Both the position numbers and the translations under genes were made by a program. A DNA stretch of 64,000 nucleotides, taken from NCBI GenBank assembly GCA_000146045.2, contig BK006938.2:992001-1056000 (forward strand), given 5' to 3'. The notes beneath the pieces are model-generated. The model worked only from the letters and a program-made list of their open reading frames with translations. It had not been told where the DNA came from and made no database searches. This DNA comes from TPA_inf: Saccharomyces (Eukaryota). Below, one piece after another: positions 25,207 through 32,755 of the stretch (positions are counted from its first letter, which is position 1; every line of letters starts with the position of its first letter).

Positions 25207-25278
25207 CTCCGAAGCGGGGAGTCGAACCCCGGTCTCCACGGTGAGAACGTGATGTGATAGCCGTTACACTACATCGGA
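25207..25278 (-). tRNA. tE(CUC): tRNA-Glu (anticodon CUC), 72 nt. A T-rich Pol III terminator lies just 3' of it (lower coordinates).
   Basis: The minus strand reads TCCGATGTAGTGTAACGGCTATCACATCACGTTCTCACCGTGGAGACCGGGGTTCGACTCCCCGCTTCGGAG. The anticodon loop is TTCTCAC (CUC). The B box is GGTTCGACTCC. Confidence 0.92.
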
Positions 25279-25688
25279 TTGTACCTTGGTGATAGTTTGA
25301 CCTAAAAGAAACGTTCATTATGTAATGAAGAAAGCCAATTATTCGGTCGCAAATCAAGGTTCTGTTAGGGAATATGATTTTCTTTGACTCTCAATGAGTT
25401 CTCTTATGACTATTTAGGGGCTAAATTATTTGTTATGGCAATATTATTAGGTAGGAAAGATACGACTTTACTGAAATTGTTGGAAATACAAAAAGGAGCA
25501 GATCATTCCACATAATGATATCATTATTCCCTCTTTCATTTAAAAAATCACCGTTTTTATTTTATTAATTATCAGTCTCTGCATTTTCAGATTCTGTTAA
25601 ATTTGATAAATGTTTTTCGCCGTTTATAAAGTATTTTTGCATCATGTATGATAATGTATTAGTAATATGAAAACTGGTGTTATTAATA

Positions 25689-26516
25689 ATCAGTGGTCAG
25701 GATGTAGTATTAGTTTGGAATAAAAGCAAATCTCCTCATGCTATATAAGAGGAATATAGAAAATACAGGCCAGTTGTTCTTATTAAACATGAACATAATA
25801 GTGGGTCTAGCAGTTACTATACATTTAAATTGGCGACTACTATTATTCGTACATTCGACTATAGCAGTATTTCCAATTAATGGATCTTTAACTCAGCTAT
25901 TATACTGTTTGAGTTCCTCGTTTAACATTTCCCTGTCCAACAGGGACTTAAAAGTATGTAGGGTTTGCATTAATATACAGTAGAGACACTTAAATTGTTA
26001 CTATAGTAACTCAAGTTACTATTCGTGAGAATATTGACTTATTATTCTTCATGAATAGTCGATTAGTAATCAAATGAAGTAATCAGATGTGCAATGCGTC
26101 TTTAATGTTTCAGACTGGAGAATGATACGTAGCTACATAATAATCTGGGTACAGTAAACTCAATGATCTATTACCTGAATGATTAATCTGATGCTTGCAA
26201 TATAACAATTCATCTCGTGACATTAACCATAAGAATTACTCTCATCATTGCTATATCGGCAAGGTTTAATATGTCCAGTCGGAGTGTATTTTATATCTCT
26301 TTCTTTTAGAATAAGAATATCTGCTTTTATTCTTAATCAATACTACAACCTAACTACTAACTATCAACACTGTTAATTACGATTCGCTCCAACAAATTTG
26401 GTTTTGTGGATTCTTAAATTCTCGAGAAAAACTTCTAATATATCTTGTATACCAGATACTGTAGCCTTTAGCAACGATAGAATACGAACAGTTCTCTTAA
26501 AATTCGCCTATTTCTC
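25689..26516. repeat. Block of degenerate Ty LTR-derived sequence upstream of tE(CUC). It includes a delta-like U5 segment on the + strand at ~26418-26516.
   Basis: The region is AT-rich and devoid of ORFs. A minus-strand unit reads TGTTGATAGTTAGTAG... at 26377 and runs to ...TTATTCCAAAC near 25720. A + strand segment TCTCGAGAAAAACTTCTAATATATCTTGTATACC...CTATTTCTCA resembles delta CCTCGAGGAGAACTTCTAGTATATCTACATACC...CCATTTCTCA. Confidence 0.5.
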
Positions 26517-27367
26517 ATACCGTTGCAGATATAACTAAAGTATTGACATTCAGTGACATCTGGCGCTGATATCATTATTTAACACACGTATGTTTGCGTG
26601 GCATTGTCATTTTTAAGAGCAGAGAAAGAAACAATGAGCTACTTGAGTGTGACAAGTTGAAAAGTCCACCAATTTCACGTTGAATTAGGATTCATATATG
26701 AAATTCTAGTCATTAATTAGAATTGTAAGTTTCTGAGCTTTTTTTTCCTAGTAAATTAAACTTGTCTAATACATCCAGTTGTGATGTATTCTATATCTCA
26801 GTTCTACAGTAGCACGAAGTTTCCCGGCCTCTCTATTCAATAAATTCAGCTATCGCTGATTATCAACAGCAGCAACGAATAAAGCATAAAAGAACAGAAA
26901 AATTCTTCTACAAATTTATTCTGTAAAGATTCAGCTTCTTTCGTGAATTTCTAAGTTCATGAGGGGAATTTAAGTATGGCGTTTCTTCGTAGCGCCATTG
27001 TCTTGAGCCAAAATGGAACTCTAAAAATTTTCACGACATTTTACTAGTCAGTAAAGTGAGCATATACATATAAGAAGAAATTTCAAAAGGTAAAAAATGG
27101 AGCAACTTCCAGCTCATTATCTTTTCAATGTTGTCGATGCCATAGTTGGATTATGAAATCTCATATTCATAACCACAACGCGTTTTTTTCCTTTTAAGGC
27201 ACTACAGACTCCATTCTCACAAGTTTGTCAAAAGCACGAGCGCGATGAGAATTAAAGTCAGATCTGGTTAATGATTCTGGTACAACAGCAGAAACAAATC
27301 GAGTACAAATTTAATCTTATTCTGTCGCAATAGTTGACTTTCTTTTCTGGCCTCTCGAACAAAAAGC

Positions 27368-28746: not shown

Positions 28747-29664
28747 ATGGCCAAAGACATTGAGATATCCGCATCCGAGTCAAAATTTATCTTAGAAGCA
28801 CTGAGACAGAATTATAGGTTGGACGGCCGCTCCTTTGATCAATTTCGTGACGTGGAAATAACGTTTGGTAAAGAATTTGGTGATGTTAGCGTAAAAATGG
28901 GCAACACCAAAGTTCACTGCAGGATTAGTTGTCAAATAGCACAACCATACGAAGACAGGCCATTTGAAGGATTATTTGTAATATCTACAGAAATATCTCC
29001 TATGGCTGGTTCTCAATTTGAAAATGGAAATATCACGGGGGAAGATGAAGTTTTATGTTCAAGAATAATTGAAAAATCTGTTAGGCGGTCGGGCGCATTG
29101 GACGTGGAAGGACTATGTATCGTTGCTGGCAGTAAATGCTGGGCTGTGAGAGCTGATGTACATTTCCTGGATTGTGATGGTGGATTTATTGACGCTTCGT
29201 GTATTGCCGTCATGGCAGGATTGATGCATTTTAAGAAACCAGATATAACTGTCCATGGCGAGCAGATCATTGTTCATCCTGTTAATGAAAGAGAGCCAGT
29301 TCCACTAGGTATACTGCATATTCCAATATGTGTAACTTTTTCTTTCTTCAATCCTCAAGACACCGAGGAAAACATAAAAGGTGAGACTAACTCAGAAATT
29401 TCCATCATTGATGCAACATTGAAAGAGGAACTACTGCGAGATGGTGTATTGACGGTTACGCTAAACAAAAACCGTGAAGTGGTACAAGTTTCCAAAGCGG
29501 GTGGTTTACCAATGGATGCGTTGACGCTAATGAAATGTTGTCACGAGGCTTACAGCATTATTGAGAAAATAACTGATCAAATACTGCAGCTTTTAAAGGA
29601 GGATTCAGAAAAGAGAAACAAGTATGCAGCCATGCTTACATCTGAAAATGCCCGCGAGATCTAA
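28747..29664 (+). CDS. RRP45: RRP45, an exosome RNase PH-like subunit (305 aa).
   Basis: An RNase PH-fold protein of 305 aa. Confidence 0.8.
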   Translation: MAKDIEISASESKFILEALRQNYRLDGRSFDQFRDVEITFGKEFGDVSVKMGNTKVHCRISCQIAQPYEDRPFEGLFVISTEISPMAGSQFENGNITGEDEVLCSRIIEKSVRRSGALDVEGLCIVAGSKCWAVRADVHFLDCDGGFIDASCIAVMAGLMHFKKPDITVHGEQIIVHPVNEREPVPLGILHIPICVTFSFFNPQDTEENIKGETNSEISIIDATLKEELLRDGVLTVTLNKNREVVQVSKAGGLPMDALTLMKCCHEAYSIIEKITDQILQLLKEDSEKRNKYAAMLTSENAREI

Positions 29665-30006: not shown

Positions 30007-30321
30007 TTAAAACAAAAACTTCGTCATCGTCATCACATAAAAAAGACCTACCATTGTCAAACTGTACAACAGCAACACAATAATAATGACGATGATGAGT
30101 TCCTCGAGAAACCCTAGAACGGCGTTATAACACTGTTTGAGGGTATTACTTTTTCCACTACTCTCGTGGCGCGGAAGACCTGCTTCCAAATCTACTGTGT
30201 AATCAATACACTTAACCTCCTCTCTCTCCCCTTGTGCGTCAGAAAACTCTGCCTGTCTTATTTCCTTCTCCTGTTGTCCTATTTTCAGTACATCATCGAT
30301 GCACCTCGAGGTATCTTCCAT
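30007..30321 (-). CDS. PHM6: PHM6, a phosphate-metabolism membrane protein (104 aa).
   Basis: The 104-aa ORF has a C-terminal transmembrane segment. It lies in the PHO-regulated neighbourhood of the synteny block. Confidence 0.7.
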   Translation of the reverse strand: MEDTSRCIDDVLKIGQQEKEIRQAEFSDAQGEREEVKCIDYTVDLEAGLPRHESSGKSNTLKQCYNAVLGFLEELIIVIIIVLLLYSLTMVGLFYVMTMTKFLF

Positions 30322-30594
30322 CTTGGTGTCAGGTTGAAAAACAATTGCTGTCGTTTTTTTTTAGTTCAACAAGTTTGGTATGGCAGTTGACAAAAATTCT
30401 ATTTGGGCTGCAATGAATCAAAGTGTACAAACATCTGGTGAAATCGTTCAAGTTTTATACTGAATAGAAAACAAAAGATAAGGTTCTGCGCATCGCAAAT
30501 AATAAATTACTAGCGCGCCATACAAGAGACGAGTCTATTTTTTTCCGCCAGACGACACAAAAAAGAACCCGTGCAAATATTATATCCCACCTCC

Positions 30595-30600
30595 CACGTG
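30595..30600. promoter_or_regulatory. Pho4-type E-box (CACGTG; the high-affinity CACGTGG form on the minus strand) in the PHM6 promoter.
   Basis: The + strand reads CCCACGTGTC. It lies ~275 bp upstream of the PHM6 ATG. Confidence 0.5.
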
Positions 30601-31136
30601 TCAGCGAAGCTCGGAACTGCGTAACATTATAGGGCAGAACATCCAAATGGAAAAAGTAATAACACTATTTGCGATGTTAGTGGCCATCCTGCGTCGTTCG
30701 GATAGGTTAGGACGGGCTGATGAATATACGGGTGTAATAAAAATGACACCACGTTATCAGGGTTTTCATGACAGTGCAAACTAATATATGTCATATTATT
30801 TTAAGTGGGCTCATTTATTTACATGTTTATTTTTTATTGTAATTTGCGTATGTATCATTACACGCTAATGCACATTTGCACGTTCTAATAATGAAGGTCG
30901 TCCGTCATAAGCAATTAGGAAATGAGAAATCTTGATTTTATCGCTAAAAAACGCTTTCTCTTGTGGCAGGAGCAGATCTCTTACATATGTAGTTATTTAG
31001 TCGCTTCTAAGAGCCAGATCAGGTGCGTGGATTCATATAATATCCCTTTTTCAATAACAACGTTATAAGGAAACGTTGGGTAAAAGAATATTAATTACTG
31101 AGTGGAACTTTTTCTCATTGTTCTGTGTATATACAA

Positions 31137-31477
31137 TGTTGTATCTCAAAATGAGATATGTCAGTATGACAATACGTCATCCTAAACGTTCATAAAACAC
31201 ATATGAAACAACCTTATAACAAAACGAACAACATGAGATAAAACACGGCCTTCCCTAGCTGAACTACCCAAACGTATAAATGCTTGAACAATCAGTTTAG
31301 ATCCGAGATTCCGCGCTTCCACCACTTAGTATGATTCATATTTTATATAATACATAAGATAAGTAACATTCCGTGAATTAATCTGATAAACCGTTTTGAC
31401 AACTGGTTACTTCCCTAAGACTGTTTATATCAGGATTGTCAAGACACTCCGGTATTACTCGAGCCCGTAATACAACA
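31137..31477 (+). repeat. Solo Ty3 LTR (sigma), 341 bp, with an intact 5-bp target-site duplication TACAA/TACAA.
   Basis: The sequence runs TGTTGTATCTCAAAATGAGATATGTCAGTATGACAATACG...CGAGCCCGTAATACAACA. The flanks are tacaa at 31132-31136 and tacaa at 31478-31482. Confidence 0.93.
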
Positions 31478-31510
31478 TACAAAAGTAACTCTTATTTACA
31501 AAAAAATCTC

Positions 31511-32755
31511 TTACTTTGTAGCATCTAGATCATCATTCGTGGGTTCTGAGCAGTAGGAAGAATATTTCTGGTAGAAATGATAAATTTCAAAGCACAGTTC
31601 GAAAGCAATCAGGTATATAATTATCCATTCCAAAAAAGTGCTGTTTCTCTCGTTTAAAAGAGAGATGAGGGCTCGACACTCGTCCGTAGAATAGTCCAGC
31701 TTGCTGTTCAGAATATTTATTCTTGGGCCTATGTCCAAATACCTCGAAACATTTTTAAAAATCTCTTCCAATTGAGGTTCACTCCAATAAAGATCAGGGG
31801 TCTCAATTAGTTCTGAATAGAGGTTCAACTTTCCTCTAATTAGAAAAAGGCGGCCTATTGACTTTAATGCATCACTTGACCTTAGATTTAACTTTGTTCC
31901 CTTAGAAATATTTTCTGTTATTGTTCTGGTCTTTGATATATGTTTTTCCATTGCTTCTTCTAGGACTGCCAAGTTGGTGCTTCTCGATAGCCCACTTGAG
32001 AATGCCGCCTTATCTAGCATTCCTTGATCAGAATCCAAGGAGTTAATTATTATCAAATCTCCAGAAAGAAAGCTTTCGCATGCAATTCTCGGTGTTACCT
32101 TATTATCCAAACTGGAAAGCTTATCAAAATCTTGTTCCCCTTCTATTTCCACATAATCCATGTCCTCAGTCTCAAAGTCTTCTCCGTTCAGTGGATTTAA
32201 ACTCGCTGCTTTAACTATAGGCACTATGCAGTTTCGAACACTAGATTCACTGAAGCCCCAGCTTACAATAGATCCATTTTGACCTAAAATCATTACGTCA
32301 CCTTTATTGCCATTATCCTGATAACTAAATGACACGATTTCATCAGGTATCAAATTTGTCGGTTGTAATCCTTGCATAGTAAGCAATTTCATGCATCTTT
32401 TGAGATCATAACCCTCTCCGGTGGTAATGGTGATACAACTCTTCACTTTTAAGTGATCTTTACTTAAAGAATCCTCCAGAATATCACGTCCATTCTCCTG
32501 CTTTCTGTGGTTTGGCACAAAACTTCGTCTCAAATAGCGAGTAGAATTCTTCGGGTTTTTAAGCATCTTCATTGTCTTGATATTCGTATCCACTGACTTG
32601 TGTTCCCTATTGGTCTTCTTCTCTGTAGCTAGTTTACCTTTCCAACGGCCATCTTGCACTTCTAAATTCTGTATTGATAAACTAGTTCCTAACCGTCTAA
32701 TTTGGAATCGTGATACGAAACCGAATGTGCTAGTCAAACTTCTGAATGAAAGCAT
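31511..32755 (-). CDS. YDR282C: YDR282C (MRX10-like) mitochondrial protein (414 aa).
   Basis: The 414-aa ORF sits at the syntenic position before GCN2. Confidence 0.75.
   Translation of the reverse strand: MLSFRSLTSTFGFVSRFQIRRLGTSLSIQNLEVQDGRWKGKLATEKKTNREHKSVDTNIKTMKMLKNPKNSTRYLRRSFVPNHRKQENGRDILEDSLSKDHLKVKSCITITTGEGYDLKRCMKLLTMQGLQPTNLIPDEIVSFSYQDNGNKGDVMILGQNGSIVSWGFSESSVRNCIVPIVKAASLNPLNGEDFETEDMDYVEIEGEQDFDKLSSLDNKVTPRIACESFLSGDLIIINSLDSDQGMLDKAAFSSGLSRSTNLAVLEEAMEKHISKTRTITENISKGTKLNLRSSDALKSIGRLFLIRGKLNLYSELIETPDLYWSEPQLEEIFKNVSRYLDIGPRINILNSKLDYSTDECRALISLLNERNSTFLEWIIIYLIAFELCFEIYHFYQKYSSYCSEPTNDDLDATK

Follow-up and report, generated by a model that had tools for sequence, protein, structure and literature searches.

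How did a sigma element, the long terminal repeat (LTR) of the Ty3 retrotransposon, come to lie at a chromosomal site that has no tRNA gene? Canonical sigma elements are found 16-19 bp from the 5' end of a mature tRNA, whereas the element YDRWsigma5 on chromosome IV of Saccharomyces cerevisiae has no tRNA or other RNA polymerase III (Pol III) gene within 5.9 kb. YDRWsigma5 and the canonical tRNA-linked sigmas (e.g. YDRCsigma4) belong to the same LTR family, and share the termini and the 5-bp duplication. The locus was analysed within a 64-kb stretch of chromosome IV, here called the window, in which the coordinate of each base is its sacCer2 coordinate minus 991,997. Comparison of alleles and related genomes indicates that the insertion is almost certainly real and precise, at a site that never held a tRNA gene. 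YDRWsigma5 is an off-canonical Ty3 integration, and not a tRNA-associated one with a decayed tRNA. The features on which this conclusion is based are as follows.

31137..31477, plus strand: solo Ty3 LTR (sigma) YDRWsigma5, also named chrIV_s82+_TY3; 341 bp, with termini TGTTGTAT...ATACAACA.
31132..31136, no strand assigned: left copy of the target-site duplication (TSD) TACAA, read from the sequence; a single TACAA is present in empty alleles.
31478..31482, no strand assigned: right copy of the TACAA duplication, from the sequence and from empty and filled assemblies.
31511..32755, minus strand: coding sequence (CDS) of MRX10 / YDR282C, 414 aa, DUF155, from the list of open reading frames (ORFs) and protein look-ups.
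30007..30321, minus strand: 104-aa ORF between RRP45 and MRX10, from the ORF list, whose position suggests PHM6 / YDR281C; the sequence to the left of sigma belongs to its distal upstream region.

The sigma sequence, as read from the window, runs TGTTGTATCTC...GTAATACAACA from 31137 to 31477. It has the length of a Ty3 LTR (about 340 bp), and the terminal inverted repeats listed above are exact. Both TACAA copies are perfect and directly abut sigma on either side. They represent a true target-site duplication, because a random 5-bp match is expected only about once in 1000 cases and exactly one TACAA is found in the empty alleles. The duplication is of the 5-bp integrase type, with TACAA on both sides in filled alleles and a single copy in the four empty ones. 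The first-pass annotation of this DNA had described a complete 341-bp sigma with a perfect TACAA duplication, and the single TACAA of the empty alleles confirms that description.

An identical sequence was catalogued by Carr, Bensasson and Bergman (2012; PMC3511429; Files S2, S3, S6, and S7) as chrIV_s82+_TY3, or YDRWsigma5 in SGD. It was placed at sacCer2 chrIV:1023134-1023474 on the plus strand (PMC3511429), and the reference row of the published alignment equals the window sequence base for base at YDRWsigma5. The element was categorized there as a solo LTR of the "Active" clade, polymorphic and present in 13 of the 21 scored SGRP strains (0.62). It was also listed among the young high-frequency insertions, which were flagged as candidates for drift, hitch-hiking or selection (PMC3511429). 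YDRWsigma5 is a few single-nucleotide polymorphisms (SNPs) away from other sigmas (s13, s359), and it clusters with the "active" Ty3 set. The element is already catalogued and its population frequency is already published; it is no new kind of feature. YDRWsigma5 has every defining property of a Ty3 LTR, and its placement is the only point on which it breaks the rule.

The strongest evidence comes from the comparison of filled and empty alleles. The SGRP alignment in File S7 of Carr et al. consists mostly of low-coverage N, and NCBI assemblies were used for this comparison. Twenty S. cerevisiae assemblies, a small sample of the available genomes, were obtained by exact look-ups with the proteins MRX10 and PHM6. 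The 341-bp sigma is present at the same position, with the same TACAA duplication, in 16 of them; the site is empty in four (L016, L020, L024, and L025), which contain one TACAA each. The assemblies GCA_029990705.1 and GCA_000977535.2 are from empty-allele strains. Across the junction, the empty alleles read ...GTGTATATACAAAAGTAAC... / ...TTCTGTGTATATACAAAAGTAACTC... The filled alleles are longer by 346 bp, that is, 341 + 5, and at the insertion point the two forms differ only by sigma and one TACAA. The rest of the intergenic region differs between empty and filled alleles by scattered SNPs; three of the empty alleles also differ in length there, by 1-2 bp. Two linked flank SNPs, T at 30660 and C at 31058, are common to the filled alleles and are not found in the empty ones. 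A single insertion event is indicated, because the 16 filled assemblies share the site, the TSD, and the flank SNPs at 30660 and 31058. A full-length Ty3 was found at the TACAA site in none of the 20 assemblies (16 solo, 4 empty). A lone LTR between identical TACAA copies is the structure of a solo LTR, and this state was presumably reached by LTR-LTR recombination, as the first-pass annotation had reasonably proposed.

The relatives give the same picture. Four related genomes were compared: S. paradoxus CBS432 (L026), a paradoxus-like strain (L011), S. kudriavzevii (L013/L014), and S. eubayanus (L015). Their orthologous intergenic regions align straight over the insertion point, and all of them are empty. 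The intergenic length is 832-904 bp in these genomes, versus 843 bp in S. cerevisiae minus the insert. No tRNA was found at the orthologous site in any of the four. ARAGORN also found no tRNA in ten related or empty-allele loci, or in one filled S. cerevisiae assembly. Because the four empty alleles and the four related genomes are without a tRNA, the site lacks one in its ancestral state as well as in today's empty allele.

The sigma alleles at the locus are themselves variable. Relative to the window they carry 0-5 SNPs, located at positions 109, 178, 217, 256, and 295 of sigma (alleles compared: L002, L007, L009, L010, and L023; up to 5/341, or 1.5%). This variation exceeds that of the flanks; in L009, the remainder of the ~850-bp intergenic region contains 2 differences. 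L009 is the most divergent sigma allele, and at least four of its five variable positions carry the base of other sigmas in Carr et al. 2012. The reference-type (S288C-type) allele has a non-consensus base at at least four of the five sites. The S288C-type allele looks derived, because L009 matches other sigmas at at least four sites, unless gene conversion by another sigma copy altered L009. To judge from the sequences, these SNPs suggest either gene conversion by other sigmas or several substitutions after the insertion. In both cases the insertion is of some age, although it is still segregating.

A tRNA or another Pol III gene was searched for around the insertion. Two short motifs of the locus are needed for this part.

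31597..31607, plus strand: B-box-like string AGTTCGAAAGC, within the MRX10 CDS (codons A-F-E-L), 117-120 bp from the TSD; judged to be chance.
30946..30951, minus strand: T6 run (A6 on the plus strand), 186 nt from the sigma edge; judged to be chance.

In the whole window, only two tRNAs were identified by ARAGORN and by Rfam at the gathering threshold, tRNA-Gly at 832-903 and tRNA-Glu at 25207-25278. The nearest tRNA gene is 5.9 kb from sigma, and the typical placement 16-19 bp upstream of a tRNA is absent. The Rfam search at E<=10 over 30300-31700 gave nothing tRNA-like, and the empty allele across the junction had no match near any Rfam threshold. The perfect B-box pattern GGTTCRANYCC (0 mismatches) occurs in the window only at the two real tRNAs. 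When up to 2 mismatches were allowed, no B box was found between 25286 and 31668, and none within 190 bp of either sigma edge. Over the window, 98 B-box-like strings were counted versus 121 expected from shuffles, and 192 A-box-like strings versus 217 expected. No match to the A box TRGCNNAGTGG was found 10-25 bp from the TSD edges, which corresponds to 31495-31512 on the plus strand and about 31100-31120 on the minus strand. A single B-box-like string occurs nearby, AGTTCGAAAGC, which has 3 mismatches to GGTTCRANYCC and holds the heptamer AGTTCGA; the relatives do not preserve its GTTCGAA core at synonymous positions. The fold z-scores of hypothetical transcripts against shuffles are 0.04 for the leftward one, ending at the T6 run, and 0.19 for the rightward one. 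ARAGORN, Rfam, and the box searches thus agree with the first-pass statement that no tRNA and no A or B box lies near sigma. Its second suggestion, a non-tRNA Pol III start site, is not supported by the sequence: A and B boxes are at chance level, there is no RNA-family match, and the fold is not unusual.

Several candidate elements were rejected individually. The A-box-like TTACTGAGTGG at about 31096 (plus strand) was discarded, since the insertion would fall downstream of the string. Two promoter pairs have the wrong spacing, TAGCATCTAGA at 31519 with GGGTTCTGAGC at 31541, and TGGTAGAAATG at 31569 with AGTTCGAAAGC at 31597; both members of the latter are also coding and unconserved. The string TATATGAATCC, at about 31034-31044 (minus strand), was rejected as having no GTTC core. 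The TATATAC at the site was not accepted as a TATA box for TFIIIB, as Ty3 cut there and not 25 bp off. The locus is also not ZOD1, which two papers put near YML089C/RPM2 on another chromosome.

Comparison with known Ty3 sites shows how unusual this placement is. The control in the same window is YDRCsigma4, a 73-bp sigma fragment (743-815) that ends exactly 16 bp before tRNA-Gly(GCC) at 832-903. This fragment is fixed and belongs to the "inactive" clade, and its spacing to tRNA-Gly is canonical for Ty3. For a rough base rate, a tRNA-type B-box heptamer is present within 200 bp in 14 of the 16 Ty3 elements covered by the flank files of Carr et al. Within the same 16, YDRWsigma5 has only the coding AGTTCGA, and the short fragment s91 has none.

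The tRNA relics ZOD1 and iYGR033c are similar cases, in which Ty3 marks a site outside the annotated tRNA genes (Qi et al. 2012 and Guffanti et al. 2006, summarised in PMC5911963 and PMC5356446). These summaries describe the relics as descendants of tRNA-Ile and tRNA-Arg that bind the Pol III machinery, ZOD1 having a B box. The YDRWsigma5 site is unlike ZOD1, with no box, no tRNA ancestry in the four related genomes, and no reported occupancy. A B box GGTTCGANNCC suitably downstream of the start was not found. No tRNA-like sequence or structure and no tRNA descent in the relatives were detected by Rfam, by ARAGORN, or in the colinear non-tRNA flanks. Judged by its sequence, the site is not a ZOD1-like relic.

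Another parallel might be provided by TFIIIB acting on AT-rich or TATA-containing DNA. TFIIIB alone on such DNA can direct Ty3, both at SNR6 (Chalker & Sandmeyer 1993, cited in PMC6673722) and in the TFIIIB-only reaction in vitro (PMC8632968). The YDRWsigma5 site resembles this situation in having an AT-rich stretch at the right distance from the duplication. However, SNR6 is a real gene with A and B boxes, and the stretch TTATTTACAAAAAAAT at YDRWsigma5 is not a consensus TATA box. If TFIIIB was the cue, the site would also resemble the ETC (extra TFIIIC) sites, which are non-gene sites binding part of the Pol III machinery. The ETC sites have strong B boxes and bind TFIIIC but not TFIIIB, and they are not Ty3 targets (PMC5911963), whereas the YDRWsigma5 site lacks a B box and was targeted. 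The AT-rich stretch is located as follows.

31491..31508, minus strand: AT-rich CTTATTTACAAAAAAATC, 15/18 A/T, at the TFIIIB offset for a leftward unit; candidate opportunistic TFIIIB site.

Opportunistically bound TFIIIB (Brf1-TBP) is the most likely cue, because the Ty3 intasome needs it to bind and cut target DNA. Without TFIIIB, the intasome showed no binding to tRNA genes and no integration in vitro, and TFIIIB alone was enough (PMC8632968). Cryo-electron microscopy of the Ty3 complex placed strand transfer at -6 and -2, which gives a duplication from -6 to -2, and TFIIIB covers -15 to -32 (PMC8632968). On the right of the TSD, the 18 bp at this TFIIIB offset are CTTATTTACAAAAAAATC, with AAAAAAAT as the 8-mer in the place of the TATA box. 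On the left of the TSD, the corresponding 18 bp are AACTTTTTCTCATTGTTC, with 13/18 A/T. With the base that follows it, the TSD reads TACAAA, which is similar to the ttCAan/TCAACA motif of Pol III starts (PMC6673722).

The following course of events is proposed. Ty3 inserted once, via its integrase, between MRX10 and PHM6 on chromosome IV, at 33 bp from the MRX10 stop. The cue would have been TFIIIB bound opportunistically, without a TFIIIC-defined gene, on the AT-rich CTTATTTACAAAAAAATC at 31491-31508. This DNA just 3' of MRX10 is probably nucleosome-free, and it lies at the TSD distance seen in the Ty3-TFIIIB structure. The internal part of Ty3 would later have been lost, presumably by recombination between its two LTRs, leaving the solo LTR. 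As the targeting cue, the TFIIIB step is put forward tentatively; the geometry fits, and is compatible rather than compelling. The combination of a precise non-tRNA insertion with opportunistic TFIIIB is the favoured explanation overall, and is considered rather probable. It seems unlikely that the MRX10 3' end holds a TFIIIC-independent TFIIIB landing site, or a weak unannotated Pol III start, at 31491-31508 that was "recorded" once by Ty3.

Several observations weigh against this explanation. Such AT-richness is found at 9% of the window positions and at 15-19% of the local intergenic positions. The AT-rich stretch at the TFIIIB offset would make a poor TATA box. The two positional hints disagree: the TACAAA resembling a transcription start site points rightward, and the AT-rich stretch implies a leftward unit. 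TFIIIC-independent binding of TFIIIB in vivo was found undocumented in the literature searched. With no full-length Ty3 at the site in the 20 assemblies, the step of LTR-LTR recombination is one that we infer.

A stably occupied, unannotated non-tRNA Pol III unit might instead start at the insertion point, for example a leftward one of ~185 nt that would stop at the T6 run (30946-30951). In its favour, Ty3 shows high specificity for Pol III start sites and also targets tRNA relics, ZOD1 among them (PMC5911963). A leftward unit would have the AT-rich stretch at its TFIIIB offset, and downstream of the site the T6 is the first minus-strand run of at least five T. The first-pass annotation had drawn attention to this run at about 185 nt. 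The run is present, at 186 nt, but as a Pol III terminator it is uninformative. T6 or longer runs occur at 1.37 per kb per strand, and for 23% of the window positions the first one falls 60-300 nt downstream. The run is also unconserved, being absent in the S. paradoxus-like, S. kudriavzevii, and S. eubayanus sequences. The putative unit has no A or B box inside it, no Rfam match at E<=10, and a leftward fold no different from shuffles (z-score 0.04). Unlike the two real tRNA genes of the window, the site has accumulated no Ty1/Ty2/Ty4 LTR fragments nearby (GFF file of Carr et al.). Literature searches on the flanking-gene and intergenic names gave no paper naming the region as Pol III-bound, and text searches for YDRWsigma5, iYDR281C, iYDR282C, YDR281C, and MRX10 returned nothing relevant. 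Such a unit is considered improbable.

Untargeted, TFIIIB-independent integration into an exposed and flexible palindrome in the 3' nucleosome-depleted region of MRX10 appears improbable to the same degree. The target lies in the 10-bp palindrome TGTATATACA, which is rich in TA and CA (pyrimidine-purine, YR) steps, and no Pol III promoter element is detectable at the site. Retroviral-type integrases prefer flexible YR steps (PMC6673722). However, the intasome neither bound nor integrated in vitro when TFIIIB was left out (PMC8632968). The duplication is also 3.5 bp off the palindrome centre. In addition, Qi and colleagues are said to have found, in a 2012 abstract, essentially all of ~10,000 mapped in vivo Ty3 events at Pol III loci, which we count against untargeted integration.

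The remaining two explanations hardly survive. The loss or decay of a tRNA gene once located 16-19 bp from sigma, which the first-pass annotation had offered, would follow the general rule of sigma beside tRNA genes (the 14/16 above), but it is refuted by the four empty S. cerevisiae alleles, which differ from the filled ones at the insertion point only by sigma and the TSD, and by the intact TSD copies and the colinear flanks of the same length in S. paradoxus, the paradoxus-like strain, S. kudriavzevii, and S. eubayanus, whose empty sites were checked for a deleted tRNA and contain none. Arrival of sigma by ectopic recombination or gene conversion, and not by integrase, is extremely improbable: the differences of up to 5 SNPs among the sigma alleles could reflect conversion between LTR copies, but the exact LTR termini and the perfect 5-bp duplication of a once-present sequence are an integrase signature, and the empty site has no homology to sigma.

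The insertion might also affect the neighbouring gene. The features concerned are the MRX10 3' flank and two motifs inside sigma.

31483..31510, minus strand: 28 bp of native MRX10 3' flank, from the stop to the right TSD copy, with the conserved TTGTAAATA and an A7/T7 tract.
31204..31210, plus strand: TGAAACA inside sigma, from the motif position.
31275..31280: TATAAA inside sigma, from the motif position; oriented rightward with TGAAACA.

Between the MRX10 stop and sigma are 33 bp (31478-31510), including the right TSD copy. The first-pass annotation had the position right, and its figure of 34 bp is the edge-to-edge count. Immediately 3' of the MRX10 stop, TTGTAAATA shows little or no variation among five Saccharomyces sequences, and TGTAT(AT)ATA is also conserved there in the relatives. 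Yeast 3'-end signals include a UAUAUA-type efficiency element and an A-rich positioning element. The TTGTAAATA and TGTAT(AT)ATA sequences look like polyadenylation signals of MRX10. The insertion splits the conserved TGTATATA 3'-end element of MRX10, Ty3 having cut inside it between TGTA and TATA. With the cut at this point, the 3' untranslated region (UTR) of MRX10 in filled strains would either end within 33 nt or enter sigma in antisense. The earlier suggestion that the LTR contributes the 3' UTR or terminator of YDR282C is plausible, given the split element.

The perfect 10-bp palindrome TGTATATACA, within which the insertion lies, spans 31126-31135 and is part of the MRX10 3'-flank element. 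The palindrome element is conserved in S. paradoxus and S. kudriavzevii, and partly in S. eubayanus. The A-tract at 31500-31506, beside the MRX10 stop, is polymorphic in length: it is A6 in the empty alleles L016, L024, and L025, and A7 in the filled alleles and the empty L020.

Sigma may also act as a promoter. The TGAAACA at 31204-31210 is presumably a Ste12-type pheromone response element, which together with the TATAAA at 31275-31280 we take to be a pheromone-inducible LTR promoter. The function of these sigma promoter motifs was reportedly described by Van Arsdell and colleagues in 1987. A sigma-initiated transcript, if any, would run rightward, antisense into the MRX10 3' end.

Some observations concern the wider neighbourhood. 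On the left of the locus lies one more annotated gene, and GCN2 comes after MRX10.

28747-29664, plus strand: RRP45.

Several blocks upstream of PHM6 (30480-30760) show no or almost no variation among four Saccharomyces species. Two of them are CACGTGGGA (30594-30602) and AACCCTGATAACGTGG; the former is, we assume, a Pho4-type site. In the 90%-identity protein cluster of MRX10, the representative is Gcn2p, and 414-aa MRX10 entries are mixed with 1659-aa GCN2 entries. This mixture apparently comes from the 2068-aa fused gene model XKU26988.1, a database artefact that hides the S. cerevisiae self-match. Four Ty1/Ty4 LTR fragments of Carr et al. lie at 25556-26517 (sacCer2 chrIV:1017553-1018514), 0.3-1.2 kb upstream of tRNA-Glu(CUC) at 25207-25278 on the minus strand. 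The next LTR rightward of YDRWsigma5 is more than 70 kb away.

In summary, Ty3 is the textbook example of near-absolute integration specificity, and each genuine endogenous exception helps to show what the intasome reads. YDRWsigma5 is a clean exception: it is polymorphic, and the empty allele, kept within the species and in the sister species, rules out a decayed tRNA. The gain is a sharpened question on how Ty3 is targeted where there is no Pol III gene, and not a new kind of element. The filled and empty alleles form a natural pair for asking whether TFIIIB sits on DNA without a TFIIIC-defined gene, and for studying the effect of the LTR on MRX10 3'-end formation. If the site were indeed a cryptic TFIIIB landing site, YDRWsigma5 would be a natural marker of Pol III machinery binding outside tRNA-derived sequence.

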